Positions 22,752 to 51,036 of a stretch of DNA of 64,000 bases are shown here, in pieces. The DNA is from Carpediemonas membranifera BICM (taxonomy: Eukaryota > Protista > Fornicata). The DNA lies in contig JAHDYR010000062.1 in assembly GCA_019828565.1 (NCBI GenBank), positions 74,801 to 138,800 of the forward strand. Reading direction: 5' to 3'. Numbering within the stretch: position 1 is the first letter of the stretch; each line of letters begins with the position of its first letter. The translations under genes were made by a program, and so were the position numbers. The notes beneath the pieces were generated by a model. That model searched no databases. It was not told the DNA's origin and was given only the letters and a program-made list of their open reading frames with translations.

Positions 22752-23516
22752 ATGTCAGACGTACATGAGCAGATTACGCAGATGCTGGCTCTACACGTGA
22801 GAACCGTGGTGACTCGTGCGAGGCCGAGACCGCTCGTAGCGATGATGAATCTCGGCCGACGGATCACGGCGACTCGGGGTCGGATGAGGAAACCGAAGTC
22901 TCGCCGCTCTTCTCTCTGGAGGAGATGATCACCGCTTTTGCCGCAGAGGGCGTGAGTTACCTCACCCTAGACATATCTGGTACCTTGCGGGCGCTCCGCG
23001 CCGGGATGCTCAACTCATATGGGCATCTCGCCGCAACGGAGAACTCTTCTTCCGTTGCGCGTGACATCTGTCGCGATGGTCTCGTGTTGCTGGCGCTATC
23101 GCGCGAGTACCACACTCTGGCTATGTGTGGTCGGCCTGGCGATCCCACCGATCAGGATCCAATACATTGAAGCAATCTGGACCCCCACTGGTTTCGGTCA
23201 TGTGCGCCACTCTTTGATGGACAACTTCCTGTTCGATGTCCCCAGCAGTGACGTCCTGCCCGTCGCGCTCGATCATAACGAGCCACGTCGTGTGTATGTG
23301 ATTGAGGCAATCGTTGGCCACCATCTGCATGAGAATTCCCTGCGTCTGCTCGTGCACTATGCTCGACGCGAGTACAGCTCGATTATCCTGGCAACCGAGG
23401 CAATCCGTGATAGTCAGGCTGGGGTCAAGTTCTTTGCTGCTCATCCCGAGCTAGTTCGCTATTGTACCCGGTCTGAGGACGCGAACGGTGCTCTCAGCGG
23501 GGGTGTTTTGGAGTGA
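22752..23516 (+). pseudogene. Antisense accessory ORF of chromovirus, degraded, with C-terminal chromo-like domain
   Basis: VYVIEAIVGHHLHENSLRLLVHYARREY; same position and orientation as the other copies. Confidence 0.7.
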
Positions 23517-23750
23517 GATAAATGTTTGGATTGAGTAGCTGCTGAAGGTTTACAGACCGGCTCGCTTGGCCTCGTCTGACTTCAGGAATATGTCTAGCGC
23601 CTCTAGGTCCTTGACTGACGCATAGTCCTGCCACGTGGCCTCTTCGTCTTCGCACCCAGCCCAATGGACGAGGTATTCCCGCTTGGACATCGGGCCTCGA
23701 CCTCGAGATCGACTGATTCGCTCAACTTCCCACTCGTCGTCAGCCGTGGC

Positions 23751-23874
23751 TGTAGCCTTATGGCTAGGGAAAGATTGTTTAATATAAGAAAACCCATGAT
23801 GTGGTGAATATGGTCAATACTATATAAATCTATGAAATGGTAATCCTATGTAACATTGGGTAAGACCCACTGCA
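23751..23874 (-). repeat. 3' LTR (PPT at 23875-23884)
   Basis: Direct repeat of 29939-30063. Confidence 0.97.
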
Positions 23875-24070
23875 CTGCCCCTCCAGTGCCCGTAAGGCAC
23901 GACCTCAAGCAACGCATATATATGGTCGGCAATAGCCGATGAGGATTAGTGAAGTGACAACCGCTTCGAACGTACGAGAGCCACCAAGTACGATCGAAAC
24001 AGTCTACTCTATTGGCGGTAGAGTAGGCTATGTCTGCCCTTCAGGCCTTGATCTACGATCTTAGCCAGTA

Positions 24071-24439
24071 TTATGTAAAGATATGGTTGATACTATTATT
24101 CGAATCTGTATCTATAAAAATCTTGTGGTACCACTGTATAAACGCGCGCGCTAAGTTAGGTATAGGGTATCTTACATGTCCCTGCCCCTCCACGGCCGGA
24201 ATACGGCCGTGATTGTGGCGGTTTGGTTCGGCTGTGCATTTTATGGCACAATGAACCGCGGTTTCGAAAGTTTCACTATACGCGGTATGCAAAGCGCTAG
24301 CCAGCGTATAGTTGTCAAAAATGGGGTTTTCAGCCCTCAACGACGCTTCGTTGGCGAGTTCTCGACGTTTTTTTCTTTTCGGTGCCGAATGAAGGTGCTG
24401 CTCTGCGCTACGTGTGTCCTTCATGAATAACAACATCAA
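24071..24439 (-). CDS. Small sense-strand ORF4 of chromovirus with a probable 42-nt intron (24134-24175)
   Basis: KKRRELANEASLR motif recurs in the same frame near 22560, 33290, 41480 and 43640; GTAAGA...AG intron. Confidence 0.45.
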   Translation of the reverse strand: MMLLFMKDTRSAEQHLHSAPKRKKRRELANEASLRAENPIFDNYTLASALHTAYSETFETAVHCAIKCTAEPNRHNHGRIPAVEGQGHVRYPIPNLARAFIQWYHKIFIDTDSNNSINHIFT

Positions 24440-24683
24440 TACTTAGTAAAAAGCCTTCGTTGCTGCACTGTTTGTGGGATATTGAGGAGTATCTTCACGA
24501 TTCTCCTCAAGGCTTCATGAGCGTCATCGAATCGACCTCCTGCGCCCAGGCTCCGGTCATGATCATGGCTGCTATGGTCTGCGGGTTAGTCAGCTAGGTT
24601 GCAGTAGTTCCCATAAAGTACGATAATTACGTCAATGCATGTAAATGCTGCTTTGAAGGATTTCAAAGCAGCCGTTTGAGGAT

Positions 24684-25932
24684 ATGGAGAATTATACCGC
24701 CGCAATGAAGGCTATAATCGAGGAACTAAGCGATGACGATGACATTGCCGCCCTCAATCGCGTCTTCCGCCACGTTATTCGCAAGCGTGCTCGTCGACGC
24801 GTTGGATCTACCGCCAACTCCGACAACACGACTAATCAGTCCTCCATTGATGCTTCAACAACCGCTACGGGGTCAACAGTCAACGATCAGGAGCGCCAGC
24901 CCGATTCCAGCGTGGTTCCGGCAACCGTCGTCGGCGATTCGCGTCCGTCTCGCCGTGCTAGAGGCAAGCGCCGTATCGGCGTCCGTGATCGAGTTCTCCC
25001 GCCGGCAGTCACGGGCGCGGACGTGGTGTTCGAGCCTCCCCGCATTGATCGCGCCACACGGCTGCGGGGTGAGCTCGATCACGTCATCTCGACGGTCAAG
25101 GCGACGTTATCGACATTCTCATCGCATCTAGAGCTGTCAGTGCAGCCGTTCCTCGATGTGTTGATGAGCGGTGCGCTTAACCAGGCATCGCTGACCTCCG
25201 TTCAGCGCCTCGACGGTGGCGTCATCGCTCTGTCTGGGGCAGTCGATGACTACTATCTGCTTGTCGGCTTCCGCAAGTACTTCGATCTTGGCTCCGGTGT
25301 CAGCGACCGGGAGATCATGAACCAGGTATTCAACGGTCGCCGTGCCGGCGATATCCGCCGGGAGGTCCTGGATGAGGCGGCACGCCTTCTTGCCGTTGGG
25401 GTCGACACGGCACGTAGCCACGTCCGCCGGCTCTATCTTCTTACGCATCATGTTCCGTATTATGCAGTGCTACAGCACGCGATCTGGAGCCGGGTGCTGC
25501 AGGGCCGGCAGTGCCTGTATCGATTTGCCAATGACTGCTACGCCCTTGCCTGCGCCGAGGAGCTGCCGACCCTCAGCCTCCCCCCGGTAGGTACCCCGGT
25601 TTCTTCGTCTTACACAGGATATGACCCGCTTTCAGGTCTACGAGCGCGACCGGTATTATCGCGTGCTGGCTGTGCGTGGTCACTGGTGGCTGTTCGTTGA
25701 GCAGGCCTACCGTGGTCGCGCTGGCTCCTTCTTGCTCCTTGTCGCCTACGACGGGTTCCCTGAAGCAAGTCTGACGCCGGTTAACGCAGACCTTGTCCGC
25801 GTGGCTGTGGTCAACCAGTACCTCAGGGCTCATTCCGAGCTCTGGGACGTTCTGCCTGAGTCCCTGCAGGTAGAGTTGGAAGAAGTGGTGACCAGTGACG
25901 AGGAGTCTGCCGGTGACGAGTTAATGTTCTGA
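24684..25932 (+). CDS. Antisense accessory ORF with C-terminal chromo-like domain (one frameshift near 25570-25620)
   Basis: RYYRVLAVRGHWW...LLLVAYDGFPEASLT...VVNQYL; convergent with pol. Confidence 0.8.
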
Positions 25933-25985
25933 TGATCTTGGTTAGCGCCTTGATAGTCCGTTATTTACACGGCTATGTACAAGGG

Positions 25986-28900
25986 CTATCCGTCTGTATT
26001 GTTCGCCAGGAAGATGTCGAGAGCTGCGCAGTCCTTAACGTTCTTATATGGTTCCCACGTGGATTCTTCGTCCTCAAATCCGGCCCAGTGCACGAGGTAC
26101 TTCTTCTGCGACATGGTACCTGACCCGCGTGCTGCTGAAATGCGGTCGACCAACCACTCGTCCCTGCTAGTTGCAGCGAGTTGCTGGATCTGGTCGTCAG
26201 TTAGTGTACCGGGGTTGAACCTTCGCACTCGTGCGGCATCGACCTTGATGGTCTTACCATTCGTGGGTGACTCTGCCATGTCTTGGACTTCATATGCCAC
26301 GGTGACGCCTGATTGCTTGATGCTCTTAACGCGCCTCATCGGGCCTCTCCACCCTGGTGATAGTTTGTCAGGTGGGCGAGAGGGGTACTTGACCAAGACG
26401 TAACGACTCAGGATCTCCGTACGCGACGAGACGGCCTTCGACCACGCGTCCTCCTTCATCTCTTGGATGCGAGCCTTCGCCAGCTGAATTGCCGCGTCGG
26501 CGGCTGCCCGGTGTGACTGCTTGGCGCTCGCTGACGCTTGCTTGGTAACGTATATTGAGCTAGGCACGGTGAGGTTATATCCCAGGACGATCTCAGCCGG
26601 TGATAGGCGGGTTGGGACTCGCGGCGTGGCGTTGATGATAAAGCTCGCGACAGGCAGGTGATGTATCCAGTTAGAGTCTCTTAGGTGGAACTTGCGTGCC
26701 TTCAAGATGCGTAACACCTCCTTGTTGGCTCGCTCCACCATCCCGTTTGACTGTGGATGGTGGGCCGTAGTGATGTGCGTATCAAAGCCCAACTCCTTGG
26801 ACAACCGTTGGAATAGCTTGTTGTTAAACTCTGGCCCTCCATCGGACTGTAACACCTCTGGGCACCCGAAGCGCAGTACCCAGTTGTTGACGAATGCGTC
26901 AGCTGCTGCTTCGGCTGTGGTCCCGGAGACGGCAACCAGCTCGGTCCACCGTGAGCACATGTCGACCATGACCGTAATGTGCGTCATACCGTCCCGCGTT
27001 GGGAATGGCCCCATAGTGTCGATCGCTACGCGTTTGAACGGGGTCTCTACAGCCGTATGAAACCCGGCCACAGTCTGCTCGGGTGGTCGTTCTAGCACTT
27101 GGCACGTGGGGCAATGAGAGATGAACTCGTCCACAGCTGAGCGGGATACGCTCAACCCGTCGGCTCTCAGTCTGTCGATTGTCTGTCTTCTCGAGAAATG
27201 AGCGCCTGCCATCTCGTGTGCCTTCTTAATCTGATCAGTGGTCGCCTGGGAGCGTACGGTGAAAACTCTCGATAGTCCTTCGGCTCCGGCGTTGTCTAAA
27301 CCTGCAACGTGCTCAATACCGAAGTCTAAGTCGGACAGGGTGTCAGCCCATCGCTTGACCTTGGCGTTAACGCTCCGGAACATGAACAGGAGGTTCCTGT
27401 GGTCGGTCAGGATTGTGAAATGGCCCCAACTGAGGAACTTGCGCCAGCGTTGCACGGCAGCTATAATGGCGTACGCCTCCTTCTCACTGGTAGACCATCT
27501 CGACTGCACCACATTAAAGGCCTTACTCATATAGCATACTGGCCTGCCCTCTTGGAGGAGTACTGCACCGTAGCCGAGCCCTGAGGCATCAGTCATAATA
27601 GTGTGCTCCTTAGTCGCGTCGAAGATGGCGAGTGCGTCCGCCGATGTGAGAGCATCCTTGATCTTCTTCAGCGCTGCGTCCTGTTCAGGCTGGCCGATAG
27701 GCCTGCGCCCGGCCATTGCCTCAGTCAAGGGGAGGGCGATCTCGGCGAAACGGTCCACGTGATCTCTGAAATAGTTCAGAAAGCCTACTAAGCCCTGCAT
27801 CCCACGGACGCTCTTGGGCAACTGGAGCTCTGCAATGTCGGCTACCCGGTCGGGAGCGATGTGTTTCTGCCCCTCGGAGATTACCCAACCTAGGAACTCG
27901 ACCTCGGCACGGCCAAACTGGCACTTCTCCCTATTGAGCTGTAACTTTGTCTCGCGTGCGCGAAGGAGGACCTTGCGGAGATTCTGGAGATATTCCTCTT
28001 CGCTTGCCCCGAAGATGATGATGTCGTCAATGTATATATAACAGGCTGTGCCGACCAGCCCCCGGAAGGCGGACTCCATAGCCCGCTGGAAATGGGCTCC
28101 AGCATTGCGTAGCCCAAAGGGCATCCGGCAGTACTCGTACTGCCCCAGAGCCGTAGTAAATGCGGTGTACTGGCGGCAGCGATCGGTCAGCTCGACTTGG
28201 TGGTAACCGGCGGAGAGGTCGAGGGTTGCGAAGACCTTCTTCCCCGCTAGCTGGGAGATAACCTCGTCAATACGAGGTATGGGGTAGTTGAAAGGTTCGG
28301 TGATGTCGTTAATTTGTCTGAAGTCAACTACGAATCGGGACTTACCCCCTTTCTTGGGTACTGTCATCGCGGGCGAAGCGTAAGGCGATTGACAGGCACG
28401 GATAAATCTCTTCGCCAGGAGAGCGTCAATGTGCTCCTTGACGACGGCTACCTTCGCCGGGGGGATGTAGTATGGTCGCGCGTTCACGACCCTGTCACTC
28501 TTCAGGATCAAGTCGTACGGTTCGAGCTTGCTTGGCTCGTTGCGATCTTCGAACACTGCGCTGAACTCCTTGAGAATCTTGGCCTGTGTATCGCTCGTAG
28601 TGGGGTTCAACTGGTAGACGGCAGCGTCGAACTTGGCGGGCGACGGAATGTCCAGCTCGTCGCTACCCTCCTTGTTCCACTCAGCCTGAGGGAGTATACC
28701 CAACTCAACCATATGGGGGTATCCTAGGATCAGGTCGAAGTCGGTGTCGAGTAGAAGTAGCTCGGCGTTAAATGTACAAGTGCGCGGGGTGAACGATGAT
28801 GGTTGCAGCTTAATCGTAGCGTTGACTCGACCCTGTGACTGTTTCTCGCCGCCTGCTGTTGCGACACGCTCCTGCGTGGTGGATATGACCTCGAGCTTGG

Positions 28901-29918
28901 CTGCGTGGCGAGGGTGGATGCTTGACACGTTAGCTCCCGAGTCTAATAACGCTGTTAGCTTCTGCTTGCCTACTGAAACCGGAACGAGTGGTAGGTTGAT
29001 CTTGGACTTGGACTGATCTGCACTGATAGAGAGAGAATATTGCGGAGATTTATCCCGACAATATCCCTCCAGGTGACCAGTCTTCTTGCAGATCGAGCAC
29101 GTGTGCTTCGGCTTAGGGCACTTGTGCCATGCGTGCTTGCCGCCGCAGTTCCAGCAGGTGTAGTCGCGCTTCTTGTCAGTGCTACTGGGATGGGGCTAAC
29201 GCTCTGACTTATCCCGGTTCAGCGTCTTGTTGCTTCCCTCCTCAGACGGCAGCGGCTGGCGATAAGGATGGCCGTTGCGGCCTGCTCTCTTTCTGTTACC
29301 GCTAGGATGGCCGCCTGTCGGGTGAATGCTCTTGGGGTGCTTCTGTCCGTCTCCTAGGTACGCTTCTCTCAGCTCTTCGCCGTCCCGCAGCTCGGTGCTA
29401 ATGGCGAGTACCTGAGGCATGGCATCACTCAGAGTGGAATCTTCGATCAACTCTTGAATGCGGTACATAGTTCTGCCTGTTCCCTGCTTGAAGCAGCGGG
29501 CGTACGTCTTACACAGTGTCTCCTGTGATGACTCGGGTTGCAGAATAGCCAGCAATGTCTGAAAGCGCTTGTTGATGCGTACCACCTCGCTAGGCGTGAA
29601 GGATGTGGCGTTCAAGCGGAAGTATTCAAGCCTTGCTACCTCGTGGCGTGGTCTAAAGGCCTTGCCGAGACGCTTGACACAAGCGATGTCTTGTTCGCGC
29701 CGGCGTGTAGTCTTGGTCTTGATGAGTGCCACGGGAGGATCGTTGTCGTCCGTGCCGAGTACTCCGTCAACGTAGTCACGGACGCAGCTGTCTATTAGGC
29801 GGTCTGAGCGCTGTTTTCCGCCGAGTGCCCGATAATCTTGGAGCGCTTCCACGAACGTGACTAATTCAGCCACGGACGTGCCCTTCAGTATCGGCGCTTT
29901 GGCCTTCCCGTATACCAT
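25986..29918 (-). CDS. Gag-Pol polyprotein (zinc knuckles, PR, RT, RNase H, integrase, chromodomain) with one in-frame TAG at 29196-29198
   Basis: CSICKKTGHLEGYC, LLDSGA, YIDD, TDAS, IDTMGP/SDGG/VER, KYLVHWAGFEDEESTWEP; gag and pol are in the same frame. Confidence 0.95.
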
Positions 29919-29938
29919 GTTGGTGGGATTAGTACTAA

Positions 29939-30063
29939 TGTAGCCTTATGGCTAGGGAAAGATTGTTTAATATAAGAAAACCCATGATGTGGTGAATATG
30001 GTCAATACTATATAAATCTATGAAATGGTAATACCTATGTAACATTGGGTAAGACCCACTGCA
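29939..30063 (-). repeat. 5' LTR
   Basis: Direct repeat of 23751-23874. Confidence 0.97.
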
Positions 30064-32675
30064 TGGCTGCGAGTGCTTTGATCTGATCTTCTGTCAGCCT
30101 GCCGGGATTGAACTTCCGAACTCTCGATGCGTCTACCGTGATCGCTTTCGAGTTGTCCTTCTCAACTTGGTCTAAAACCTTATACGCGACAACGACACCG
30201 TGTTGTTTCACTCCGGCGAGCCTTCGCATTGGCCCTCTCCATCCAGGTGACAACTTGTTCGGTGGTCTAGAGGCGTTGACTTGGACGAACCTGCTAATAA
30301 TCTCATACCTCGAGGCAGTAGCCTTTGCGAGGGCGTCCTCTCTCATCGCCTTAACTTACCTTACCTTACCGCCACGGCCGCTCGACTGGGAAAGCGCGTC
30401 ATGACCCTCGAACAACTGTCAGTGATGTTCCAGCACATCATCCGGATGGCGCCATACCTCTCGGCGCCCCACGCCGACAATGACTGCGCGATGCAGAGCA
30501 TCCTGATCGGTGTGAGGGCCCTCGGGTCGACCAGCTCAAGGGGGGAGCGACACAGGATCCACATGGCGATGAGCCGAACCACGGCAGGCCACATGAGGAC
30601 CAGCAGACAGCGCACCCTGCAACACGCGATCTCACGCGCGTTGTGCGCGTTCCAGTTCGGGCGCCTCGGCGAGGCACGCAGACGCGCCCAAGACAGTCCA
30701 AACACAGAAATCCAAAATGAGAGAGATACGCTGTAAAGGGACACAAAAGGTCAAGAGGCCTGTTATAGATCCATAACAGAGCACAGTTCAGCTTGGAAGG
30801 AGCGGCCCCATGCCCGCATCCGAGAGTCCACGAGGTGCACTCAGTGTGTCAACGCAGGTTGGAGTGTGGGAGCTCCCCAACCACTATGAGCGCAGTTTCT
30901 ATGACCTGGACAAGAAACAAGGAGAGAGAACCGGAGAGCAACAGATACACTCGATGTATCCAAGCTAGAGAGAATTACGAGAGAATCTATTGGCCTAAAG
31001 GGCTGGAGCCGAGAAGCAATGGCGACGCTTTTCTGAGTGGCAGCGCAATTTTGCAGCGAGCCCAAGATCTCCCGCAGGAAGATAACACAGGCAAAACGGA
31101 GACAACATCGACCTCAAGCACCTAATAGGAGCCTAGTGGGTGAATTATAGTACCCAGCAGCCATCACAGGCCCGAGACCCATGCCAGCCTAGATCGTCCA
31201 TGCAGAGACTGGAGTAGAGAGTTTGGCCCACGACAGAGGGCGCGCAAGATAGAGAGACATGAAGCCTACAAGAAGGCGCCACAAATACCAGAGGGGCCCG
31301 CCCGTAGCCAGAGAAAAGGTCGGTGCATTATAAGGTCGACGCCCGACGAAGATATTCTGCGTGGCAGGAAAAATTCCACTTCGAGAATGAAAGTAGTGAT
31401 CCCGCAGGAGTTGCAAGAGAGTACCCAGCGATGTTGGGAGGATATCAGAGGAGCAGTTGAGTTATATTCATGTTCAGTGCGGTGTCGGAGATAGGCCTCT
31501 CCATGCCAAGGAGGGGAGTGTATAACTTAGTGACGTCCCGGATCGCCAACTTGATGGCGCCGTGTCGTCTGATGGCCTTGTGTTAGGTGCGGTCGAACTT
31601 GCTTGATCAGCGCACTCGGGATTTTGAACACACCGCAACAATTCTGCTCGACAAAAGAGACTTTTCGCCAGTTACATCACTGGGAAGCGGTACACCCGGA
31701 AGGGAACTCATCCTCGAGCTTGTACGTTCAGTGCTTATGGCAACTGGAATCAAAAACAAATTCAGGAACGAACAACCCCTGGGATCGGTAGGGGAGGGCC
31801 CTACATATCCCAGTGGAAGCACGTCGCTGCATGGCTAGCTGCTGGAAACAGAAAAACAGGAAAATAAAATCGTGATCAAACACGAAGGAAAGCAGGAGTG
31901 GTAAACCCACCAAGAAAGAAAGAAATTTAGTGTGCTTGGTATCTGACCCCGGACTGGGCTGCTTTCCCATTATCCGGGAGCCGCGTGGCCCGGGGTACTG
32001 CCTTTGCCTCAAGGGGAGCTAGTCAGCTGCGCTCCCCTTCGGGCTTCGGTGCTACTGTCTCCACTGACACATGATTCCAATCGCCCCAGAGGCTCTTCAG
32101 CCAGCTCCGTGCACTGTGTGCTTTCCTGTCCATACTGATAGCCCTAGTAAACCCACCAGGAGGGCTACCAGTGACCCCTTTTATCCGGTTTCCCTGATAA
32201 CTACCTGAGGGCACAACCCGAGGGCCAGGTGGGTAGGCGCCACCGATGGGTTCGATGAGGGTAACCCCCCAGATATCCCGGTGGTAGACCGCAGCCACAC
32301 AGCAGCATGCGGGTCGTTGGGATGGACAGCTAGAAACAGAAGCAGTACATATAAACACAGCAAAACAAGCTAGCAGAAACCCATGATTATGGTAGCACCG
32401 TTTGAAGGGCACCTGAAGGAGCTAGCAGCACTGATCAAGGGCTCGGGGGGTCAAGATGACCCTGCCGCCCTTTTTAACGACAGAGGAAACTGTCAAAGTG
32501 TAGCACAAGAGAACTGATGAAGGGGGTGCAGGACAAACGGGACTAGAGACCGTGGGTATACCGACCCAGCCCACATCACAGCTATCATGTAGTCATCGGA
32601 GACGAAAAAAATCGTCATCGTCGCTCCACTCCTCCGTCGTGGAAGTGTTGATATCTTCCTCGTGAGAAATCGTAG

Positions 32676-35114
32676 TGTGGTTTGACTATACCTGTTTTAC
32701 TAGGAGAAGAGACTTCGACACAGGGGTGTCGAAGTCAATCCATAAATGTTCTTAAATTGTACTGACTGACACTGCCCCTCCATGCTCAACTGACTTGAGT
32801 ATGAATAACTTGTGCCGGTAGGCCTCACAGGGGAAAGCCTGTGCTAACCTACTTCACCGTTGGCAGCTGGGGAAAAGCCCAGTGCCCGGGAAGGGTACTC
32901 TGCCTTAGCTCGGTAACCCTTGCTTCACCGTCGCTAACTGTGGGTAGCACAGCAGCCGGAACACCGTTGACACACTCTTACTGCAACGTAAGGGTGTCCG
33001 GTACAACCGTAGTTGTTCTGTAGTGACGTATCTCCAAATTGATTGACTCAGAATTTCGTGGTACCACTGTGTAAGTATTGCGTCATACGCTCAAGGGTTA
33101 GTCTTACCCGGGCTTACCGCCCTCCCACGGGCCATTACTGGGCCGTATGGTTGTTGATTAGTTCATTCGGATCCTTAAAATGCACAAATGGCTTCAGTTC
33201 GAAACCACCATGGTATGTGGCCTTGAAAGCCCTCATTCTTACATAGCGTTCGAATAACGCCTCTAGAGGCCTCAAAGCCTCTCCGTTGCCGAGATATGGC
33301 CTTTTTTTGCTTTTCTCGTTCGTCGACAGTTGGGACGCCGCGAATATTGCTCTATAACACTAACAACATCAGTATTCGTCTCATAGACGTATAAATATCG
33401 TGATTTTGCGGACTTATCGTCCTCAATACGCGTTCATCGGGGTTCACCAAACGGACCCTTTCTCGGTCGGCGAATTCTGCCAAACCCGTCTGCTTTCGTA
33501 AATTACGCGTTGCACCATGCTATTCAGCGTCCTGACTTAGCTGTGTGGAGTCCTGGTCATGACCCAGGTCCTACGTTTTTGTATCATGTAACACGTAAAT
33601 GAAGTTTTGACCGCGGTTAATACTTCCATACGGCCTAATGGAGAACCTTGTGCATGATTTGGACGCACTGATCGCTGATCTTGCTGGCAATGACGGCAAT
33701 CTGCCCGTTGCTGAACGTCTCCGCGCTCTGAAGCGCAAACACCAGTCCGTGCTCGTGCCGGACAGCACCGATATGCCCCAGAGACGTGCTCGTCCCGAGG
33801 AATCTTCCTCAGCACCCATTGTTGAGCCGTCATCGCCGCAGGTCGTCATCGAGGTTCCTGCGGCTCGCGCGATCACCCGCCGGCACCCACCTGAGGATAT
33901 CTCTGGTCGCGTCTCGAACTGCTTCGAGCTGCCCCTCCAGGGCATGCTGTCCCGTCTGAGGACCGGACAGGTTTTCAGCGCTGGCGATGAGGCTGGAGAC
34001 CTCATGACGCGTCAGTCCCTCTTGCTCCTGACGGACTTCGTCACCGACGCCGTCGTGGGCCGTGCTCTGCGGTCCCACTTTGAGATCGACTCACCTGCCG
34101 ATGCCGCCCTCGCCGAGGCTCTGCTCGCCTCTGCCGGTGTCACGTCCGGCTGTTTCTCCCGGTCTACGGTCGATGTCGTGGTAGCGACCCTGACCCGCAT
34201 CACTCCCGATCTCGCTGATCGCCAGCCATCCTATCTCCGAACCCTGGCGAACCAGTCCCTGATGCGGATCATCATGATCTCTTCGCACCCTTCCCTGTAC
34301 TGCTGTTGGATGGTGGCCCAGGCCCGTCGCGTCGACCGTCTGTCTGCTCACAAGGCGACACGGTTTGTGACGGACTACTACGCCCTGCTCACAAACGATC
34401 GCATCGCACGGATCGAGACCACGATCAGCGCTGCCGAGCTCGTGCCGCAGGTGTCTGACCCGTCACTCGACTACGTCATCGTCGAGTGCCTCAGGCACAT
34501 TGAGCTGTACAACGAACAGTTCCGCGAAAGCTTCACCCTTGTGGTTAAGTATCAGAATTACGCCGTGCCTGGACTTACTCAGCTCACGCAATCCATGTGC
34601 ACTTGCCTTCCGATCACCAACTACCTCACCAATGCCCGTCTTTGGCCGCGTGTTCGCCCTGAGTGGCACCCTGAGCTGCTCCTGGCCCGGCTGCGCGAGT
34701 CAGCTGGTGCGATCGACGAAGAATAAATTCTGTTGGCTGCCTTACCCTGCCTTTTACAGGTACATATAAGTGGCAGGCTTATGCTTTTCCGAGAAGTATA
34801 TCTAACACTTCGCAGTCCTTGACGTTCTCGTAAGGCTCCCAAGTGTCCTCGCATGGCTCATACCCTTTCCAGTGCACGTGGAACTTCCTATTCTTGATCG
34901 ACTTCTCATTGGATGAATCGTAAATGCACTCGACAACGTACTCGGCGTCAGTGGTCGCTGCCAGGGCCTGTGCTGAGTCGCGTGACAAGTCACCCTCGAA
35001 AGCCCTCACGCGCTCGGATGCTACCCTGAACTCCTTACCCGAGTTCACGTCTCTCACATTGTATGCTACCGGTAAGTTGTCGACGATAACCGGGTTCACT
35101 AGCTGAATTGGGCC
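32676..35114 (-). mobile_element. 3' portion of a chromovirus: probable LTR ~32676-32771, PPT, 3' cassette, antisense ORF, integrase/chromodomain end
   Basis: GGAGGGGCAG-TGTCAG junction at 32771/32772; KFHVHWKGYEPCEDTWEP in 34779-35114. The left LTR boundary is tentative. Confidence 0.8.
33638..34726 (+). CDS. Intact antisense accessory protein (362 aa) with C-terminal chromo-like domain
   Basis: DYVIVECLRH...FTLVVKYQNYAVPGLT...ITNYL; the stop overlaps AATAAA; strongly similar to 43989-45318. Confidence 0.9.
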   Translation: MENLVHDLDALIADLAGNDGNLPVAERLRALKRKHQSVLVPDSTDMPQRRARPEESSSAPIVEPSSPQVVIEVPAARAITRRHPPEDISGRVSNCFELPLQGMLSRLRTGQVFSAGDEAGDLMTRQSLLLLTDFVTDAVVGRALRSHFEIDSPADAALAEALLASAGVTSGCFSRSTVDVVVATLTRITPDLADRQPSYLRTLANQSLMRIIMISSHPSLYCCWMVAQARRVDRLSAHKATRFVTDYYALLTNDRIARIETTISAAELVPQVSDPSLDYVIVECLRHIELYNEQFRESFTLVVKYQNYAVPGLTQLTQSMCTCLPITNYLTNARLWPRVRPEWHPELLLARLRESAGAIDEE

Positions 35115-39774: not shown

Positions 39775-39856
39775 GGGTGCTTATACAATGATCCAAATCA
39801 CAATTTCGGGGAGCTTAAATATGGGCACTACAGACTTTTAGATCAAAACTGCAATA

Positions 39857-40827: not shown

Positions 40828-42225
40828 TGTGATCACTAAGGAAAAAGGCTTTATAAAGAGAGCTCGACACAAGGGTGTCGAGCTGGACGGATCAAGACCG
40901 TATCAAATACGTATCTCATATATAAATGGCTGACACTTCCCCCCCATGCTCTGTTAAGAGCATCACGAAAAGGATACCATTGTTAATCAGGTCTTGGGGG
41001 AATAGCCCAAGAGTGCTGACCCTATAACCGTCGATCGCTGGGGAATGACCAGTGATCCGGGGATGCCAACTAAGTTCAACTTAGGAGGCTGACCGTCGCG
41101 CACACGGGACTTGCGTGTACGCCGGATAGTATCCGTTGACTAGGCTGACGACATAGCGTCCTAAGCCATCGCCCGGCGTGGAGTCCACCCACGGAACTTC
41201 TCTAAAGATTTTCTAGATTGCGCAAAGATTCTACAGATTCGAAAAGACTCGTGGTACCACTAAATAAGCGCGCTGTGTCATGGGTATCTTACCTGGGGAT
41301 CCTGCCCCTCCTAGTAGTCGATACATACCAGTGTTCTGTCTGATTGCATCAAACCGTGCAGGTTATGTCATGCATTCGGCTTGATTCGGAATAGTTGGCG
41401 GTTTGTGCCCTTCTTCCGCTATTTCTTACATAGGCTTCGAAAATGCGGTTAATTAGCTCCAATTCCGCTTCCTTGGCGAGATACGGGCGTTTTCTTCTCT
41501 TCGTCTCCGCTCGGACTTCTTGTGCCCAGAATACGAGCTCCATCATGAATAACCAACATCACAACCACGTTCTACGCATAAACTTTGTCCGTTATCACTT
41601 CTTTGAGGGGTTTTCTTCCCCTTTTCCTCGAGATCTCGTCTCGGCATAAAACGCGCGAGAGAATGCGTGAACGGCTGTCCCTTGGCCAGTATTGGCTATA
41701 CAGGCGTGCTCAGCGTCTGTAACTTGCACGGTGGGTGTCCTCCTGAGATTATATAACTCATGTATACATGTAAATCAAATCTGGGACGCGTCCTAGATTT
41801 CAAACGGCGCTATGGCAAACGTTGAGAAGGAACTCTTTGCTGCAATCGACCAGTATATGACGGCCAATCCTACTGGTGTGCTCATCTCCGATCTTCAGGC
41901 CTTGAAGCGAAAGCACGTCGAGCTGCTGAATGGTGACGGCTCCCAGGAAGCTACTGAGGGTTCTCACACGCCTCCATCCACTGACAACACCGCTGAGACC
42001 ACCGATGGTGATGCCATTTCGCACCAAGAAGCTGGTTCAGCTCCCGATCGCACCGTTCTCCGACCTCGACGCTCCGGACGGCACATCACCGACTGCCATC
42101 CCGAATCTGCTCAGACCACAATCACCCGCACGAGCGAGCTGGGCGCTGAGTTCAACCAGCGCGTCGTCGAGGTCCCCGTCCGCCAATTCCACCGACAGAC
42201 CCGTTACCGCGCCAATGTCGAATAG
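40828..42225 (-). mobile_element. 3' fragment of a chromovirus (probable LTR 40828-40935, PPT, 3' cassette, N-terminus of antisense ORF 41812-42225)
   Basis: GGGGGGGAAG-TGTCAG junction; cassette at 41251-41311; LQALKRKH as in 33638. Confidence 0.7.
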
Positions 42226-43068: not shown

Positions 43069-46000
43069 TGTGGTCCTCTTGGGCCAAACAAAGGTAAAAA
43101 GGGTTTACAAAGAGATGAGTCGACACAATGGGTGTCGTTTGACTGTTGTTGACTGTGTAAATATGTTTTCTGTGTAACATGTGGGTAGGACCCACGACAC
43201 TGCCTCCCCATGGCTCGCAGAGCCATGACGAGAATATGTGAGCGAATGCTCTAAAACTCAAGTGACCTCCGGGACGTCGGGGGGCCAACCCTTCAGTACA
43301 CCTTTGGCGACATCCTTGGCAGGGATGCCAGGCGAACACCTCATATGAGTTGCCAGAATAGGCTGGTTTGAGAATCTCGAAAAAGATTCGGGATCCGAAC
43401 GGATTCAATCATTGTGGTACCACTGGGTTAGCTAGCTATGTTATGCGATGTCTTACCGGGGTCCTCTGCCCCTCCACGGACCCTAAAAGGGCCGTTTGAA
43501 ATTTGATTATCTCGATCTGATGCCTTAAAGTGCATCATGAGACGTAGATGGGAAAGTCTTCGGGTATGTAGCCCGAAGCGCCCATACTTACATGGGTGCC
43601 GAAAAACGCCTTTAGAGGCCTCAATTCGGCCTCGTTCGCGAGTTCTGGCGATTTTTCTTCTTCTGCTCGTTGCGTTGCTTCTTGGAACGGCTTAAGGCCT
43701 TCCTTCTCTAATTAACAACATCAATATCTATGCCATTAGCCTTTTGGGGTAAGAAGGCCGTTGTTATCTCTTGAACTCGGCCTTTGGTTTTGGGAATTAG
43801 GGATCGGCCCGAACGAGCCTTCAGAAATCGATGACGATCAATAAATGGCGAATTATGAGTGTTACCACGGTATTGCTCGTCTAAAGTTGGGTAGACTAGG
43901 TCAGTGTGCACCCTCAAGGTCCATATCCTTGCATATGTAACTAACGTAAATGGAACTTCAATCATCGTCGAAGCTTCATAGCGTTACAATGAGCGATTTG
44001 GCCGCTGATCTGGACGTCCTAATTGACGAGTTGTCGACAATACCGCAAGCTTCTGCCATTGTTCCTCGCTTGCGGGCTGTTCGTGAACGTCACTGCGCTG
44101 CACGTGCGCTCGCAACTACTACGGAGACTTCTGCTACTTCTCCATCCGTCGAGGCCGTCCCAACTGAACGACCGCCTGCGGAATCAGCTCGTTCAGTCAC
44201 CATCCCCGTCACGCGGGAGCAACCCATTCGTCGTCGCCATCCCACACACGCGCGCATTACTGGCGTCGTTGTGAACGAGGAGGGGCACACGCAGACCCGT
44301 AGTGGTCACGTCGTGCGTATCCACACCTCTTCCGCTGCCCCTTCGGTCCCTACCGTCGCTGCAAGGCTTCGTCGCAGCTCGGACCGTCCCTCGCGCTCCA
44401 ATGTCATGCGGGCGCGGTTTTCAGCCCGCGGCTCGCCCTCGCGCGGGGCTTGATGCTCGCGAGCAACGCTTCCTGGCTGTGCTGTCCAGTGTCACCAGTC
44501 TCGTCAGCAACTGCTACGAGGTGAGCTTGCACGCGCTTCTTTCTCGTCTCAACGACGGATCCGTGTTCAGTGGAGAGCTTGGTTTCGATCAGACCCTGCT
44601 TCGTTCACTCAGGCTCCTGGGCGATTTCGCTCAGGATGCTCTCGTGGGCCGGCGCCTCCGTTCGTACCTGCAAGTAACCTCCGCTGGGGACCTCGCCCTC
44701 GCGCAGGCGTTGCTGGCCGACGCCGCCCTCTCAACGCACGGGGCCTTCTCCACTGGAGTCGTCTCGGCTGTCGTGGCTTGCCTAGAGGAGTCTAACTCCG
44801 ACTTGACGAGTACCGGTCTGTCATACCGGCGCGAGCTGGCTAATCAGTGCCTGAAACGGGTTGTCATGATCGGCTGTCACCCACACGTCTTCTCCTGCTG
44901 GTTGATCGCCCAAGTGCGGTCTACCGATCGTTTGACCTGGCGTTTTGCCATCCAGTTCGTCGCTGATTACTATTGCCTCCTGGAGGCTGGTCGCCTGGCT
45001 GCTATCGAGTGTGATGTACAAGATCGTGCTCTCCTGACGCCGCAGGTGACTGACCGCACCGTAGATTACATCATCGTTGAGGTCCTTCGCCACATGGAGC
45101 AGTATGATGTTCCTCTACTCGAGTCTTTCACCCTGGTTGTGAAATACCAAAACTACGCCGTTCCCGGCTTGACTCAACTCACCCAGAGTATGTGTCGCGT
45201 CACCCTGGTGGCTGATTATCTAACGCAAAATGACTTATGGCCTCGCGTTCGGGTTGAATGGCGTCCTATCGAGCTCATCGTTGACGCTAATGAGTCTGTC
45301 GGTGCTGTTGACGAATAAAAGTCGGATTTGAAGGCTCGTGAAGTTTACAGGCCATCAATTTTTGCCTGATCTGACTTCAAATATATATCCAGCGCTTCCA
45401 AATCCTTCACGTATATATAATCCTGCCAAGTAGCTTCAGAGTCTTCGAACCCGACCCAGTGAGTCAGGTACTCACGCTTCGACATGGGTCCTCGGCCTCT
45501 TGACTTGCTGATACGGTCTACCTCCCACTCATCGACAGCCGTCGCAGCTAGAGCTTTGATTTCGCTCTCTGATAGCAATCCTGGGTCAAACCTTCTGACC
45601 CTGGCGGCGTCTACCTTGACCGTTGGGCCATCCTTACCTTCTGCTAGGTCTTGGACGGTATAACCCACCGTCACGCCGTCGACCTTGACGCTGTCTACGC
45701 GACGCATAGGCCCCCTCCAGCCTGGAGACAACTTGTTGGGGGGTCTAGACGGGTATTTCACCAGCACAAACCGGCTTAGGATCTCTTGTCGCGTTGTAGA
45801 GGCTTTGGCTAATGCTTCCTCCTTGGCTGCCTTGATCCGGCTGCTAGCCAGCCGCACTGCGGCGTCAGCTGCTGCCCGATGGCATTGCTTCGCCGCTGCT
45901 GTTGAGGTGGACGTAATAAATATCCGTTGTGGCACGTTAGTCTGGAAACCGAACACCATCTCAGTGGGTGAGAGGTGGGTGGGTACGCGGGGTGCGGTGT

Positions 46001-48963
46001 TCACAATGAACTGCGCGACCGGTAGGTTCTGCACCCAGGTTGACCCTCGTAGTTCAAATCTCCTTGCGCGTAGTATCCTCTCTATCTGCTGATTCGCTCG
46101 CTCTACCATACCATTACTCTGGGGATGATGGGCGGTAGTGATGTGGGTCTTGAACCCCATCTCAGTGGCGAGGCGCTTAAACAACTGGTTGTGGAACTCA
46201 GGGCCGCCATCCGACTGGAGCACCTCTGGGCATCCATACCTCAGTACCCAGTTGTTCACGAAGGCATTCGCGGCGGCTTCGCCTGTCGTCCCAGTCACGG
46301 GCACCAGCTCGGTTAGCCTGCTGCACATGTCCACAATCACGGTTATATGTGTCTTGCCGTCACTCTCCGGTAACGGGCCGATGGTATCGACAGCGACTCG
46401 CCGGAACGGTCTGTCAACGGCCGTATGCAGCCCGTCTGGTCGCTGGGTTGGTGGGCGCTCTAAGAGCTGGCACACGGGGCACCCTGAGATGACTTTGTCA
46501 ACGAGGCGCTTGGGAACCGCCTTACCTTGTGAGCGCAAAGTCTCGGTGACTACCCGACGCGATAGGTGGGCTCCTCCTAGAAGGTGTGCTTGCTTGACAT
46601 CCTGTTCGCCTGCGGGACACAAGGAGTACACGCGCGACAAGCCGTCCGCCGCTCCATTGTCTAGCCCGGCGACATGCTTCACCTCAAAATCAAGGTCGGC
46701 CATCGCCTCCGCCCACCGACGGACCTTGGCGTTAACCGACTTAAACATGAACACGAGGTTCCTATGATCTGTTAAGAGGGTGAACTTTCCCCATGATAGG
46801 TACTTGTTCCAGCATTTGATGGCTGCTACGATGGCGTAAGCCTCCTTCTCACCCACCGACCATCTGCTCTGTACGTCGTTAAAGGCTTTCGACATAAAAC
46901 AGACAGGTCGACCCTCTTGTAATAGCACGGCTCCGTAACCGACGGCGGATGCGTCCGTCATCACGGTGTGCTCCTTCGACGCATCAAATATAGCTAAAGA
47001 GTCTCCTCGCGTCAGCACGTCCTTAACTTTGTTCAGGGCTTCCTGTTGCGCCTTCGTACCGATGGGTGTCTTGCCAGCCATGGCTTCGGTCAGGGGAATG
47101 GCTGCGGTGGCGAAGTCTTCTCCGTGGTCACGAAAGTAGTTCACGAACCCGACTAGCGCCTGCATGCCCTTGGCAGACTTAGGCATCTTGAGGTCGAGGA
47201 TATCCTGTATGCGGTCCGGCGCGATTCTCTTCTCCCCGTCGGAGATGATCCACCCTAGGAATTCCACCTCCTTCCGGTTGAACGCGCACTTGTCTCTATT
47301 GAGCTGCAACTTGACTTGGTCTGCCCTCTCGAGCACCTTCTCGAGGTTGTTCAGGTACTCGTCCTCATCGGCACCCGATACGATGATATCGTCGATGTAA
47401 ATCTGGCAAGCGTTGCCAACCAGGCCTCGGAACGCCCTCTCCATTGCTTTCTGAAAGTGGGCGCCAGCATTGCGTAGCCCGAAGGGCATGCGCTTATACT
47501 GGTATCGGCCGAGGACTGTCTTAAACGCCGTATATTGTCGTGACCGCTCTGACATCAGGATCTGATGGTATCCAGACGATAGATCCAGGGTGGCGAAGAT
47601 TCGTTTGCCGGCCAATTGGGCTATCACTTCGTCTATCCGAGGGATAGGGTAGTCGAACGGAGCGGTCATCTGGTTGATCCCGCGATAGTCCACTACAAAG
47701 CGCGTCTTGTCTGGCTTCTTTGGGACTATCATCGCTGGCGAGGCAAAGTCAGACGAGCTTGGCTCGATAAAGCCCTTTCGCAACAGCTCGTCGATGTGTT
47801 CCCTGATCACGTCAACCTTCGCCGGGGGGATAAAGTATGGTCTTGCATTGACCACTCGATCGCCCTTGAGGATTAAGTCGTAGGGCTCTAGCTCGCTCGG
47901 CTCATGTCTGTCCTCGAATACTCGTGTGTATCGGCGTAGTAGGTTCGTCTGGCGTTCAATGGCTGCCTCGCTCAACGAGAACAGGGGAGCATTATGCTTG
48001 GCGACGTCTGGTATCTCGGCATCAGTGAACTCGGACTCAGCGTACGCCTGTGGCAGGATGCCCAAGGCTACCATGTCGGGGTAGCCGAGGATAATGTCAA
48101 ACTCTGTCTCGAGCAACAGCATGTCTGAAGAGAATGTGCATGACTTGGGTGTAAAGGCTGAAGGGAGTAACTTCAGCTCGACATCGGCTGTGCCCAAGGC
48201 ATCGATCAAGCCGCTCGCGGTCTTGACTGCGATCTTCTGGTGAGAAGTTACCTTGAGGTTCTTGGCGAGGCTGGGCTTAACGGCAGAGCGTCCTGCACCC
48301 GAGTCTAACAAGACAACCACAGGTGTCTTGCCGATGAATCCGCGGCACAACGGGATGTTCGGGTCAGTTGGGGACGCCAATGTAGCCAATGGAACACACT
48401 CTGAAGGTTTATAGCGACAATAAACCTCCAGGTGACCCTCCTTCTTGCATGTGACGCAGCGGTGCTTCGGCTTGGGGCACTGGAAGGTCTTGTGCTTACC
48501 CTTGGCGCTGCAGTTGTAGCATACATACGTATCAGGGACTTGGTGTCCTTCGCGTTTGACGTTCGCGCCGCTGGTGGAATGGCGGTTAGGCTTCGAGCTA
48601 GGCTTAGGGCCCCGATGATGATGACGCTCCATGCGGTGCTGCGTGGCGCCTTCAGGCTTGATGTGGTGATGGGGACGCTGATTCTTGCTGGAAGGGTGGT
48701 CATTGAAAGCCTCAGCGATCTCACGGCTCTCTTGGACGTCCCGGCTCATCGCTAGAACCTTCGGAAGGGCTTCTAGGAGCGGTTGGCCTTGAATGAGCTC
48801 CTTGATCCGATACATAGTCCGTGATCCTTGACCGAACTTGAACGACCGAGCGTACGTGTCACGAAGGACCTCCTCGGAGGAATCTGGCTGTACAATAGCC
48901 ATCAGGGTAGTGAACTTCCGGAAGAAGCTAATGGAGGAGTCCGGGTTCAACTTGATCAGCGAT
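43069..48963 (-). mobile_element. 5'-truncated chromovirus: LTR 43069-43199, PPT, 3' cassette, antisense ORF, gag-pol
   Basis: LTR start TGTCGTGGGTCCTACCCACATGTTAC resembles the LTR of 23751-30063; PPT GGGGAGGCAG. Confidence 0.85.
43989..45318 (+). CDS. Antisense accessory ORF with chromo-like domain (frameshift in linker ~44330-44450)
   Basis: MSDLAADLDVLIDEL...RLRAVRERH; DYIIVEVLRH...FTLVVKYQNYAVPGLT. Confidence 0.85.
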
Positions 48964-48968
48964 TGCAA
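45345..48968 (-). CDS. Single-frame Gag-Pol (N-terminus missing) with integrase chromodomain
   Basis: CVTCKKEGHLEVYC, LLDSGA, YIDD, TDAS, DDE integrase, EYLTHWVGFEDSEATW. Confidence 0.95.
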   Translation of the reverse strand: MQSLIKLNPDSSISFFRKFTTLMAIVQPDSSEEVLRDTYARSFKFGQGSRTMYRIKELIQGQPLLEALPKVLAMSRDVQESREIAEAFNDHPSSKNQRPHHHIKPEGATQHRMERHHHRGPKPSSKPNRHSTSGANVKREGHQVPDTYVCYNCSAKGKHKTFQCPKPKHRCVTCKKEGHLEVYCRYKPSECVPLATLASPTDPNIPLCRGFIGKTPVVVLLDSGAGRSAVKPSLAKNLKVTSHQKIAVKTASGLIDALGTADVELKLLPSAFTPKSCTFSSDMLLLETEFDIILGYPDMVALGILPQAYAESEFTDAEIPDVAKHNAPLFSLSEAAIERQTNLLRRYTRVFEDRHEPSELEPYDLILKGDRVVNARPYFIPPAKVDVIREHIDELLRKGFIEPSSSDFASPAMIVPKKPDKTRFVVDYRGINQMTAPFDYPIPRIDEVIAQLAGKRIFATLDLSSGYHQILMSERSRQYTAFKTVLGRYQYKRMPFGLRNAGAHFQKAMERAFRGLVGNACQIYIDDIIVSGADEDEYLNNLEKVLERADQVKLQLNRDKCAFNRKEVEFLGWIISDGEKRIAPDRIQDILDLKMPKSAKGMQALVGFVNYFRDHGEDFATAAIPLTEAMAGKTPIGTKAQQEALNKVKDVLTRGDSLAIFDASKEHTVMTDASAVGYGAVLLQEGRPVCFMSKAFNDVQSRWSVGEKEAYAIVAAIKCWNKYLSWGKFTLLTDHRNLVFMFKSVNAKVRRWAEAMADLDFEVKHVAGLDNGAADGLSRVYSLCPAGEQDVKQAHLLGGAHLSRRVVTETLRSQGKAVPKRLVDKVISGCPVCQLLERPPTQRPDGLHTAVDRPFRRVAVDTIGPLPESDGKTHITVIVDMCSRLTELVPVTGTTGEAAANAFVNNWVLRYGCPEVLQSDGGPEFHNQLFKRLATEMGFKTHITTAHHPQSNGMVERANQQIERILRARRFELRGSTWVQNLPVAQFIVNTAPRVPTHLSPTEMVFGFQTNVPQRIFITSTSTAAAKQCHRAAADAAVRLASSRIKAAKEEALAKASTTRQEILSRFVLVKYPSRPPNKLSPGWRGPMRRVDSVKVDGVTVGYTVQDLAEGKDGPTVKVDAARVRRFDPGLLSESEIKALAATAVDEWEVDRISKSRGRGPMSKREYLTHWVGFEDSEATWQDYIYVKDLEALDIYLKSDQAKIDGL

Positions 48969-49270
48969 TACTAATAGGTTGATTCAGCATTTAGAGCGGG
49001 CAACCAGTCCCGCTATGCTAGATTTTGATACATAAAACGTCGCCGGTACTTGGTAGTGAACTACCAACAAGGTAGTATGAACTACCTACTAGGTAGTATG
49101 AAGCTCGCAAACGCTCTCTGGTGTTCCTCGGTCCAACGCCATGAGGTCTTACCAGACGTTAGGGCGTACAACGGTGCCATAATGGTGTGGTGAGGCGCAG
49201 TTTAAGGTTTTGGTTTTTGACCATTTTCTCCACTGCGGTTTCCAGGAGTAAATCAGTTCTCATCCATTAA

Positions 49271-50297
49271 TTGGAAAGTTCCCTTCAAGGCCAAACCAAG
49301 CACAACCCCGCGATTAAGGACCTATTCCCTGTCGATGACGAAGACGAGACCCCACTTATTCTTAGCAAGAAGAAAGCTCGCCGCGAGCATCGGGACAAAG
49401 TGGTCCTCAAGCGCCTCGGCACAACGCTGAAGCCCCGTAGCTTAACAGCTCAACTGATGCCATCCCGTCTCCACGCCTCCGACTTCTCGGTTATGGAGGT
49501 CGCCCGCGTCAACCGCCGCTTCAAGCTCGTCCTCGCCCTATTCCAAGACGACAGCCTTCCGACCGATGTGTTGAAGGACACCTACTGCCGTGCATTCAAG
49601 TTCGGCTCGTCGAAGGCCATGTACCGCATCAAGGAGCTGATCGAGGACCTCGACTTCGACGACGCAATTCCAAGCGTCCTCTCCCTGGCCCGCGAGGTTC
49701 AGGAGAGCAAGGACGTCGTCGACGCCTTCGAGGACACCCCGCGTGACGCACGCAGCCGCGGCTCCGCCAGCAACCGAGGCCGTCAGCAAGGCAACCACCA
49801 GGGCCGCGACCAGTCATCATCAGACAACAACCATCAATCCTCCGGCGTCAGAGACAAGAAGGTGGGCCAGACACTGCCCGCCACCTACGTCTGCTACAAC
49901 TGCGGCGCCGAGGGGAAGCACAAGACGTGCCAGTGCAACAAGCCGAAGCACAAGTGCAGCCACTGTAAGAAGGAGGGCCACCTGGAGGTTTATTGTCGAT
50001 ATAAACCTTCAGCATGTGTCCTCTTGTCCCTTAGCACACCGTCAGACCCCTCGGTATCCCTGTGTAGAGGTACGGTCGCAGGCAAGCCTGTTGTCGCTCT
50101 CCTCGACTCTGGAGCTGGACGATCCGTCATTCATTCCAAGTTCGCATCAACGCTTAAGAAGATGACCACAGATCGAGTTCAGGTCAAGACGGCCAAGGGT
50201 ATCATTGACGCCCTAGGCAGTGTGGAGGTCGACTTGACCCTCGCACCGTCAGTCTTCACGCCTAAGTCGTGCTCGTTCAAGTCAACTATGCTAAGGG
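49271..50297 (+). pseudogene. Gag-protease fragment of a related Gypsy element
   Basis: CYNC...H..C, CSHCKKEGHLEVYC, LLDSGAG; ends abruptly at a chimeric junction. Confidence 0.88.
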
Positions 50298-51036
50298 CTA
50301 CGTGAACTTCATCGAGGTGCCACTCGAGGCCATCTTCGACCATCTGTCAACTGGCACTCTCTGGAGTGGTGGCGCCGGCACCCTCCTCGACATGTCCAGC
50401 AACCTCCTGGTCCAGCTCCAGCGGGAGCACCGCGCCTTGCGCTTCCTCCGCGAGCGCACCGGCAGCCGCGCCCAGACCGACAAGGGCATCGTCCAGGCCG
50501 CCATCACTGCTGGCCTGTTCCGCCTTAAGAGCAATGACAAGACCAATCAGTACATCGCTCCCCAGAACTTGGCCGCCCTCGCTCGTGCTCTCGACTGCGG
50601 CGACAGCCTGGCCGGCCAGACCTTGTACCGTGTCGTTGTCCTGGCCCTCGCGCCAGAGTACTACCGCCTGTTCCTGCACGGTGAACGTTCCGAGCACGTC
50701 TCGGTCACTCCCACGCACTGGGCCGCCCTGGTCGGCAACCTCCGTGCCATGGACGAGCTCCCGTCCCTACCGGAGCGCCTCGGTCTGGCCCTCCAAGTCT
50801 CTGACCCGGAACGCGAGTACGACGTCCTGGACGTGCTGGGTCATGAGATCTTGACTACCGGCCCTGACCGCCGCCTGATCCTCCACGTGCAATACGAGGG
50901 CTACACCGCCCCCACATGCACTGATCTGGACTCGACCCTTGCTGCGGTCACCGTGGTCCGCGAGTACCTGGTGGACTTCGAGCTTGAGGACTGGATCAAC
51001 GGCCCTGACGACGAATCCGATGAAGGTTACGAATAA
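50298..51036 (+). pseudogene. C-terminal half of antisense accessory ORF with chromo-like domain
   Basis: EYDVLDVLGH...LILHVQYEGYTAPTCT...VVREYL; acidic tail; stop in AATAAA. Confidence 0.8.

Follow-up and report, generated by a model that had tools for sequence, protein, structure and literature searches.

An antisense gene with a predicted chromo-like domain in Ty3/gypsy retrotransposons of Carpediemonas membranifera

Extra genes that lie antisense between pol and the 3' long terminal repeat (LTR) have been described in several Ty3/gypsy retrotransposons. Among the plant genes of this kind, known as aORF-3R, are those of maize Grande (gene23), rice RIRE2, Retand (TRP28) and PvRetro13 (ORF2) (PMC7264820, PMC11963269), while in the fungus Botrytis cinerea the brtn gene of Boty-like elements occupies the same place (cited in PMC7264820 and PMC8365987). 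The function of these accessory genes is an open question (PMC7264820, PMC11963269). Here we describe antisense genes at this position in Ty3/gypsy elements of the metamonad Carpediemonas membranifera BICM, found in a stretch of 64,000 nucleotides of contig JAHDYR010000062.1 (positions 74,801 to 138,800), which we call the window. The layout of these elements is already known from Grande, Retand and Boty brtn. The new part is the cargo, a C-terminal domain predicted to be chromo-like; a search of the open literature, with subscription papers and bioRxiv supplements outside its scope, found no chromodomain cargo in an antisense retrotransposon gene.

The first-pass annotation of this DNA named plant Tat, Retand and Grande elements as precedents, and these do share the layout. 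Judged by the excerpts cited above, brtn is a closer one, as an extra antisense gene in the same place in a gypsy element from outside the plants; those parts of PMC7264820 and PMC8365987 make no mention of a chromodomain cargo for it, and the two systems are compared by description, not sequence. Among the 11 proteins matched by a profile of the antisense proteins (see below), none of those with a named organism is fungal. Boty carries a chromodomain in its integrase. The plant genes resemble ours in position and orientation and, in the portions of the sources consulted, are conserved like gag-pol. Retand, however, belongs to a non-chromovirus lineage, its antisense region spans 2.9–6.6 kb as against ~2 kb here, and the plant cargo is TRP28 or SMC-like, with no such Pfam match here: the Transposase_28 domain of the TRP28/Retand family was not found in Pfam scans of the antisense proteins. 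Mobile elements with epigenetic modules of their own, such as the VANDAL anti-silencing factors, DAM-LTR and EpiLTR, are also comparable (bioRxiv 10.64898/2026.05.21.726589), but these modules are methyltransferases or demethylation factors, and the excerpts of that source describe no antisense chromodomain gene.

The window holds a nest of mobile elements. The Ty3/gypsy elements that carry the extra gene read along the minus strand, and the gene itself, antisense between pol and the 3' LTR, is on the plus strand. Seven copies had been proposed, which we label by their starts (A 22752, B 24684, C 33638, D 35820, E 41812, F 43989, G 50298). Five of the seven keep the C-terminus and converge on pol, the stop codons of gene and pol lying 33 (A), 53 (B), 52 (C), 26 (F) and 19 nt (G) apart. 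D and E are only 5' fragments cut by other elements, with neither a C-terminal domain nor a pol end alongside, and their membership rests solely on the upstream block described below, the polypurine tract (PPT) and a weak N-terminal likeness. The gene stop had also been said often to overlap AATAAA; it does so in C, F and G, and does not in A and B. An LTR pair encloses the gene in B and in L001, a related element from another assembly, whereas A, C, F and G are placed by their convergent stops.

Judging by its sequence, the antisense gene is a real third protein-coding gene, conserved across these Ty3/gypsy elements, and its position is fixed in elements whose pol proteins are 46–69% identical. 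Purifying selection on the gene is supported by the comparison of C with F over 273 codons, which meets the first-pass annotation's call for a dN/dS check. Identity at the three codon positions is 0.63, 0.66 and 0.39; the proportion of nonsynonymous differences (pN) is 0.35 against 0.69 for synonymous differences (pS); the corresponding substitution rates are dN 0.47 and dS ~1.9; and pN reaches or exceeds pS in 0 of 300 bootstraps. Conservation is strongest in the 91 codons at the C-terminus (pN 0.28), where it is comparable to that of pol of B versus F (0.26). For the C-termini of G and B, 1% of bootstraps reach pN>=pS.

The family extends beyond the window. Further members were found on other contigs (P0002–P0008, P0011–P0015, P0019 and P0020), and P0009 matches the N-terminus of B only. 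P0003, P0004 and P0006 correspond to neighbouring locus tags (J8273_4056, 4057 and 4060) on one contig, which suggests a further cluster of the G type. An integrase scan of metagenome contigs gave 67 pattern matches and one confirmed locus, L001, a full-length element with identical 75-bp terminal repeats and the same PPT. Its unbroken gag-pol frame (1344 aa) is 46–57% identical to the pols of the window, and its antisense gene (P0018) has its stop in AATAAA, 34 nt away from that of pol. L001 is inserted in a fragment of an open reading frame (ORF; L001 5905–6630, minus strand) that matches residues 37–107 of copy D (E 3e-5); part of the D frame may therefore belong to another type of element.

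That the C-terminal domain is homologous in sequence to chromodomains is supported by several comparisons. The pattern Y..H..L-x-V-x-Y..L, recognised by the first-pass annotation, is invariant in the five C-termini (A, B, C, F and G). With profiles that leave out a protein's own subfamily, four of the five C-termini score above all 200 shuffles, A being weak (its score is reached by 6 of 200). A profile made from the antisense proteins alone and run against 1.84 billion proteins gave 11 matches: nine family members and, as the only non-members, P0016 and P0017, both of them Pfam-Chromo proteins (E 7e-5). Alignment of the antisense domain with the repeats of P0017 by hhalign has a probability of 91.5%.

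For the fold we depend on modelling, which predicts a chromo-like arrangement of three strands plus helix. Modelled with AlphaFold, a G-type protein and copy C both show three strands followed by helices (pLDDT, the predicted local distance difference test, ~60–87). In a structure search, the G-type model matches Chp1 (Z 6.0, root-mean-square deviation (rmsd) 1.9 over 52 residues), the HP1alpha shadow domain (Z 6.0, rmsd 2.7 over 56) and Oxpecker (Z 6.0, rmsd 2.1 over 53), and the copy C model matches chromo and chromo-shadow domains at Z 3.9–5.2, including Chp1 (Z 5.0, rmsd 2.0 over 52). All matches over the C-terminal domain are chromo or chromo-shadow chains, except for the SHH1 SAWADEE domain and GEN1, related folds in the G-type search. 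The chromo-barrel proteins MRG15, MSL3 and MOF are not among the matches listed (50 per search) and are not thereby excluded. Eight of the 10 structure neighbours listed by the Atlas are clusters with Pfam Chromo, all below the service's bar, and the Atlas feature searches gave no usable match. A homodimer prediction for the domain, in which the alignment was not used, scored 0.02 and gave no verdict either way. With the two models, the structure matches and the profile matches at E 7e-5, the chromo-like domain of the first-pass annotation holds up as a prediction.

The cage of aromatic residues has fared less evenly. Taking the cage columns to be numbered as we assume, columns 1 and 2 are aromatic in all nine members and column 3 in eight, in proteins only 17–38% identical across subfamilies; eight of the nine read Y, Y/F, Y/F, and a His after the first strand is invariant. 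Together with the predicted fold, these columns resemble those of the HP1 family (Chp1, Oxpecker, Rhino and HP1alpha). The proposed parallel with the cage of the integrases stands for the aromatic positions; it does not extend to the central Trp or to any likeness with the integrase domains themselves. Also unlike the HP1 family, the domain is retrotransposon-encoded and fused to an unclassified helical core.

Several of our results count against this picture of a selected gene with a methyl-lysine-reading chromodomain. Selection is not significant for C versus G (7% of bootstraps), and none of the antisense proteins reaches the threshold of a Pfam family. The models rest on eight sequences, with a predicted template modelling score (pTM) of 0.43; Z values of 5–6 are middling by the search tool's own note; and chromodomain and chromo-shadow matches tie, lying within 1 Z unit in both searches. 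Foldseek, which the first-pass annotation had proposed as a check, gives HP1-like rows a probability of 0.5–0.97, but the E-values of the chromo rows (0.2–1.8) are non-significant. The profile that scored P0016 and P0017 was also the one by which they had been selected. As for the cage, the central Trp is replaced by Tyr or Phe in 9/9 members, copy A has an Arg at the third column, and the TWEP motif that follows the third cage residue is lost in all nine, with hydrophobic strands instead.

Other identities for parts of the protein were considered and rejected. Profile searches of the PDB returned E. coli ClpS (E 0.002–0.1) and one herpesvirus tegument chain, and no chromodomain; we regard the ClpS likeness as chance because all the ClpS rows trace to a single protein and ClpS does not appear in the lists from the fold searches. 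For the helical core, matches to the Cdt1 winged helix (Z 6.1, rmsd 2.3 over 69; Z 5.4, rmsd 4.7 over 85) and to homeodomain-like folds (Z 4.6–5.2) are below the level trusted for helical bundles.

The chromovirus integrase chromodomain belongs to the same superfamily and occurs in the same elements, whereas the domain described here is encoded by a separate gene on the opposite strand. The integrase chromodomains are canonical, and the antisense domain has no detectable sequence likeness to those of its own elements (hhalign probability 0.3–0.5%). It is thus not a recent second copy of them; the Tyr-Tyr/Phe-Tyr/Phe reading of its cage and its loss of TWEP also tell against a copy. Derivation from the cognate integrase chromodomain was likewise undetected, since even in the best case 5–6 of 200 shuffles reach the score. 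A chromodomain remnant at 20114–20260 (plus strand), joined to a reverse transcriptase fragment, is intermediate between the integrase and antisense types, with weak scores against both profiles; it hints, as a lead only, that the antisense domain could have come from the integrase of another element. The history of gene and integrase may also differ within the family: at the integrase end, A and F are 80% identical and C and F 39–41%, while the antisense proteins are 18–23% identical in A and F and 47–67% in C and F. This suggests cassette exchange or a recombinant F, although one such conflict among five copies falls short of proof.

The elements themselves show the order protease (PR), reverse transcriptase (RT), RNase H (RH), then integrase (INT), with a C-terminal chromodomain in the integrase (Pfam Chromo E 6.7e-9 in B, 1.3e-9 in G, 0.009 in F and 4e-10 in L001). 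Element B (23751–30063, minus strand) is full length and nested inside the integrase of element A. Its LTRs of 124 and 125 bp (23751–23874 and 29939–30063) are 99% identical, have TG..CA ends and are flanked by a 4-bp target duplication, TGGC; the 3' PPT lies at 23875–23885 (minus strand), with equivalents near 32772 (C), 35200 (D), 40936 (E) and 43200 (F). Gag and pol of B (29945–25986, minus strand) are separated by one in-frame TAG (29196–29198), where F and L001 are open. In a search for a tRNA-type primer site, neither B nor L001 shows TGG following the 5' LTR; B carries there a 10-nt palindrome (29929–29938, minus strand) with the same GTAC core as the palindrome of the upstream block.

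The reading frames of A, B and F are interrupted. Copy A (22752–23516, plus strand; chromo-like domain from ~23295) faces the integrase chromodomain end of its element (23550–23750, minus strand), the integrase resuming at 30064–30403 past the nested B, as traced by tblastn and reading frames. Copy B (24684–25932, plus strand) has a frame break near 25590–25640 and its domain from ~25657. Copy C (33638–34726, plus strand; domain from ~34472) encodes 362 aa in a single frame, with an in-frame linker deletion relative to P0002, and adjoins an integrase C-terminal remnant with chromodomain (34779–35114, minus strand). Fragment D (35820–36344, plus strand), which matches the upstream block profile region, is cut by a Tc1-like element; fragment E covers 41812–42225 (plus strand). 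Copy F (43989–45318, plus strand; domain from ~45067) has one frame break near 44400–44450, and its gag-pol frame (45345–48983, minus strand; PR, RT, RH, INT and chromodomain by Pfam) lacks the 5' end. Copy G (50296–51036, plus strand; domain from ~50818) is 78–84% identical to P0003 and P0004; its N-terminus and LTR side were lost at the junction with an inverted gag-protease fragment (49271–50305), and a pol remnant (RT-RH-INT and chromodomain; 51056–53569, minus strand) remains. For comparison, a chromodomain-bearing gypsy family at 53304–55688 (plus strand) has a pol that runs into its own PPT and LTR, leaving no room for an antisense gene. The first-pass annotation had called this family (53370–55688) a sister that lacks the gene; the lack is confirmed, but with 32–34% RT-RH-INT identity to the clade, against 53–69% within it in a comparison and tree of the five local elements only, the family is distant and not a sister.

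The antisense gene is likely spliced, as far as its sequence can tell. The exons of copy A (22752–22796, 22823–23124 and 23156–23516) translate into a protein identical to the 235-aa NCBI model P0019 (J8273_6935), leaving out GT-AG introns of 26 and 31 nt; we had predicted the 31-nt intron at the second break before the match to P0019 came to light. The annotation of C. membranifera drew on RNA-seq hints, according to the part of its description available (PMC8516963). Copy B is open over 405 aa if 25587–25617 (31 nt, GT-AG) is an intron, L001 is open over 366 codons with a 25-nt candidate intron, and the break in F could be a 22-nt candidate intron or a plain frameshift. P0011, on another contig, begins just past the break shared with B, and A-like models elsewhere likewise begin after the break of A. 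Candidate GT-AG introns of 24–32 nt occur at four of five breaks, in a size window picked post hoc; short ones in the right phase occur near 27% of arbitrary points, which leaves the introns of B and L001 as candidates only. Introns on the antisense strand would survive reverse transcription.

Between the PPT and the ATG lies a conserved non-coding block of ~330 nt, with 42–66% identity among copies versus 27–49% in flanking controls. In B (24115–24440, plus strand) it contains the palindrome GTGGTACCAC, a second PPT-like copy, a CTTACAT motif and an ACATCA motif; in the other copies it lies at 33048–33372 (C), 35405–35720 (D, palindrome degenerate), 41240–41560 (E) and 43403–43724 (F), and in A it is split by a Tc1-like insert (20336–20460 and 22491–22637). 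The upstream pattern occurs five times, versus none in 100 shuffles, and lies 559–580 nt ahead of the ATG in all four uninterrupted copies that keep the palindrome. A profile of the block, trained on five of its six copies, picks up A in both halves and has no match elsewhere in the window. ACATCA, the last motif, which we take to resemble an initiator element, is also found upstream of the gene in L001. The block may be the promoter of the antisense gene, a reading that is weakened by L001, where it is unrecognised apart from the PPT and ACATCA. The second PPT-like copy, ~260–370 nt inside the 3' PPT (24182, 33119, 35463, 41302 and 43466 in B–F, with 20391 as the matching place in A), could instead serve replication, possibly as a second plus-strand priming site. 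We rejected a structured RNA in the block, as consensus folds are weak and covariation is unfavourable on both strands, and there is no Rfam match within the window.

How these parts might work together can be proposed at graded strength. The most likely function, we infer, is that of a trans-acting chromatin reader regulating the element. The gene would be transcribed from its own internal promoter and the transcript spliced, giving a free protein made apart from the gag-pol polyprotein; its diverged chromodomain would bind histone tails, probably at methyl-lysine, and the protein would act in the nucleus in trans on the element's chromatin state and its expression, for example by anti-silencing. 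We would put the chance that this explanation is right as a whole at about even. An own upstream promoter and a nuclear product have both been shown for Grande gene23, according to the parts of the literature cited above. A bolder version is doubtful in its entirety: a free-standing, retrotransposon-encoded HP1 mimic, expressed as a spliced antisense cassette from its own promoter and swapped among gypsy lineages, whose tyrosine-cage chromodomain reads a mark other than that of the integrase and whose helical core binds the element's own palindromic block, keeping it open. We consider it unlikely that the fold instead works as a chromo-shadow-like interaction module, dimerising or recruiting or titrating host silencing factors without reading methyl-lysine. 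The shadow domains of HP1alpha and Chp2 do tie with chromodomains (Z 6.0 vs 6.0 and 5.1 vs 5.0; Foldseek probability 0.94), and the loss of TWEP to hydrophobic strands and of the central Trp would fit. However, chromo-shadow domains are not known to have the first and third cage aromatics, which are kept here, along with the second (the third in all members but copy A), despite the low identity across subfamilies, and the sequence matches are chromodomains.

Chromodomains guide chromovirus integration, at least in the excerpts available (PMC11728184; bioRxiv 10.64898/2026.05.21.726589), and these elements are densely nested in the window, with B sitting in the integrase of A; the protein might thus join the pre-integration complex as a second chromatin tether and steer insertions into clusters like this one. 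We think this quite improbable: the integrase retains its own canonical chromodomain, the discordant identities of gene and integrase fit poorly with a tight integrase partner, and the family without the gene sits in the same cluster. With the gene outside the gag-pol polyprotein as well, we prefer regulation of provirus chromatin to integration targeting. Convergence on the end of pol, with a poly(A)-like signal within ~50 nt of it, would suit copy-number control, in which the gene promotes silencing at element copies through its protein, an antisense RNA or both, and PMC7264820 discusses control by antisense RNA for genes of this kind. Selection acts on the amino-acid sequence, however, so antisense RNA alone is insufficient, and we give self-restraint little credence. 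A passively captured fragment of the host or of another mobile element, its chromo likeness a chance match of three strands and a helix, would be compatible with the weak fold statistics and the several broken copies, but is largely refuted, and hardly to be believed, given purifying selection, the fixed position in elements of such divergent pols, the presence in a second assembly and the independent sequence matches to chromodomains.

The window holds further features outside this family. At 14356–15231 (minus strand) lies an ORF whose start mimics the tail of histone H3 (E 3e-6 to residues 1–40 of H3), fused to a body that is not histone. The ORFs nearby (13353–14267, plus; 7846–9105, minus; 17404–18798, minus) match SET weakly (E 0.13), and a PHD finger (E 0.002) and a kinase are also encoded among them. 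Long unknown ORFs at 3–19 kb are bracketed by repeats (1063–1228 and 18806–18969), and the region may be one large element, mobile or viral, that carries a set of chromatin tools. There are also three Tc1/IS630-like elements: 20492–22485, with terminal inverted repeats and a second ORF (21576–22409) converging on the transposase; 36344–37800, likewise, its second ORF (36350–36817) having a weak zinc knuckle; and 37809–39834, with inverted repeats and a DDE_3 ORF. For a probable host membrane-protein gene (60215–62131, minus strand) Pfam gave no match; its 5' end holds a candidate for a short GT-AG intron.

Since the cargo of this antisense gene is a recognisable and assayable domain, the hypothesis that such genes are regulators becomes directly testable. 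The two unrelated-looking chromodomains of the same element offer a built-in comparison of a targeting reader with a free one. If the fuller HP1-mimic scenario is true, it would be the first time that an accessory gene in this place is seen to encode a chromatin-reader domain, and in a host lineage whose heterochromatin system is undescribed. C. membranifera has no origin recognition complex (ORC) and is expected, in the part of PMC8516963 that concerns it, to form heterochromatin in some other way; the ligand of the antisense domain would therefore also inform on the chromatin marks of metamonads.

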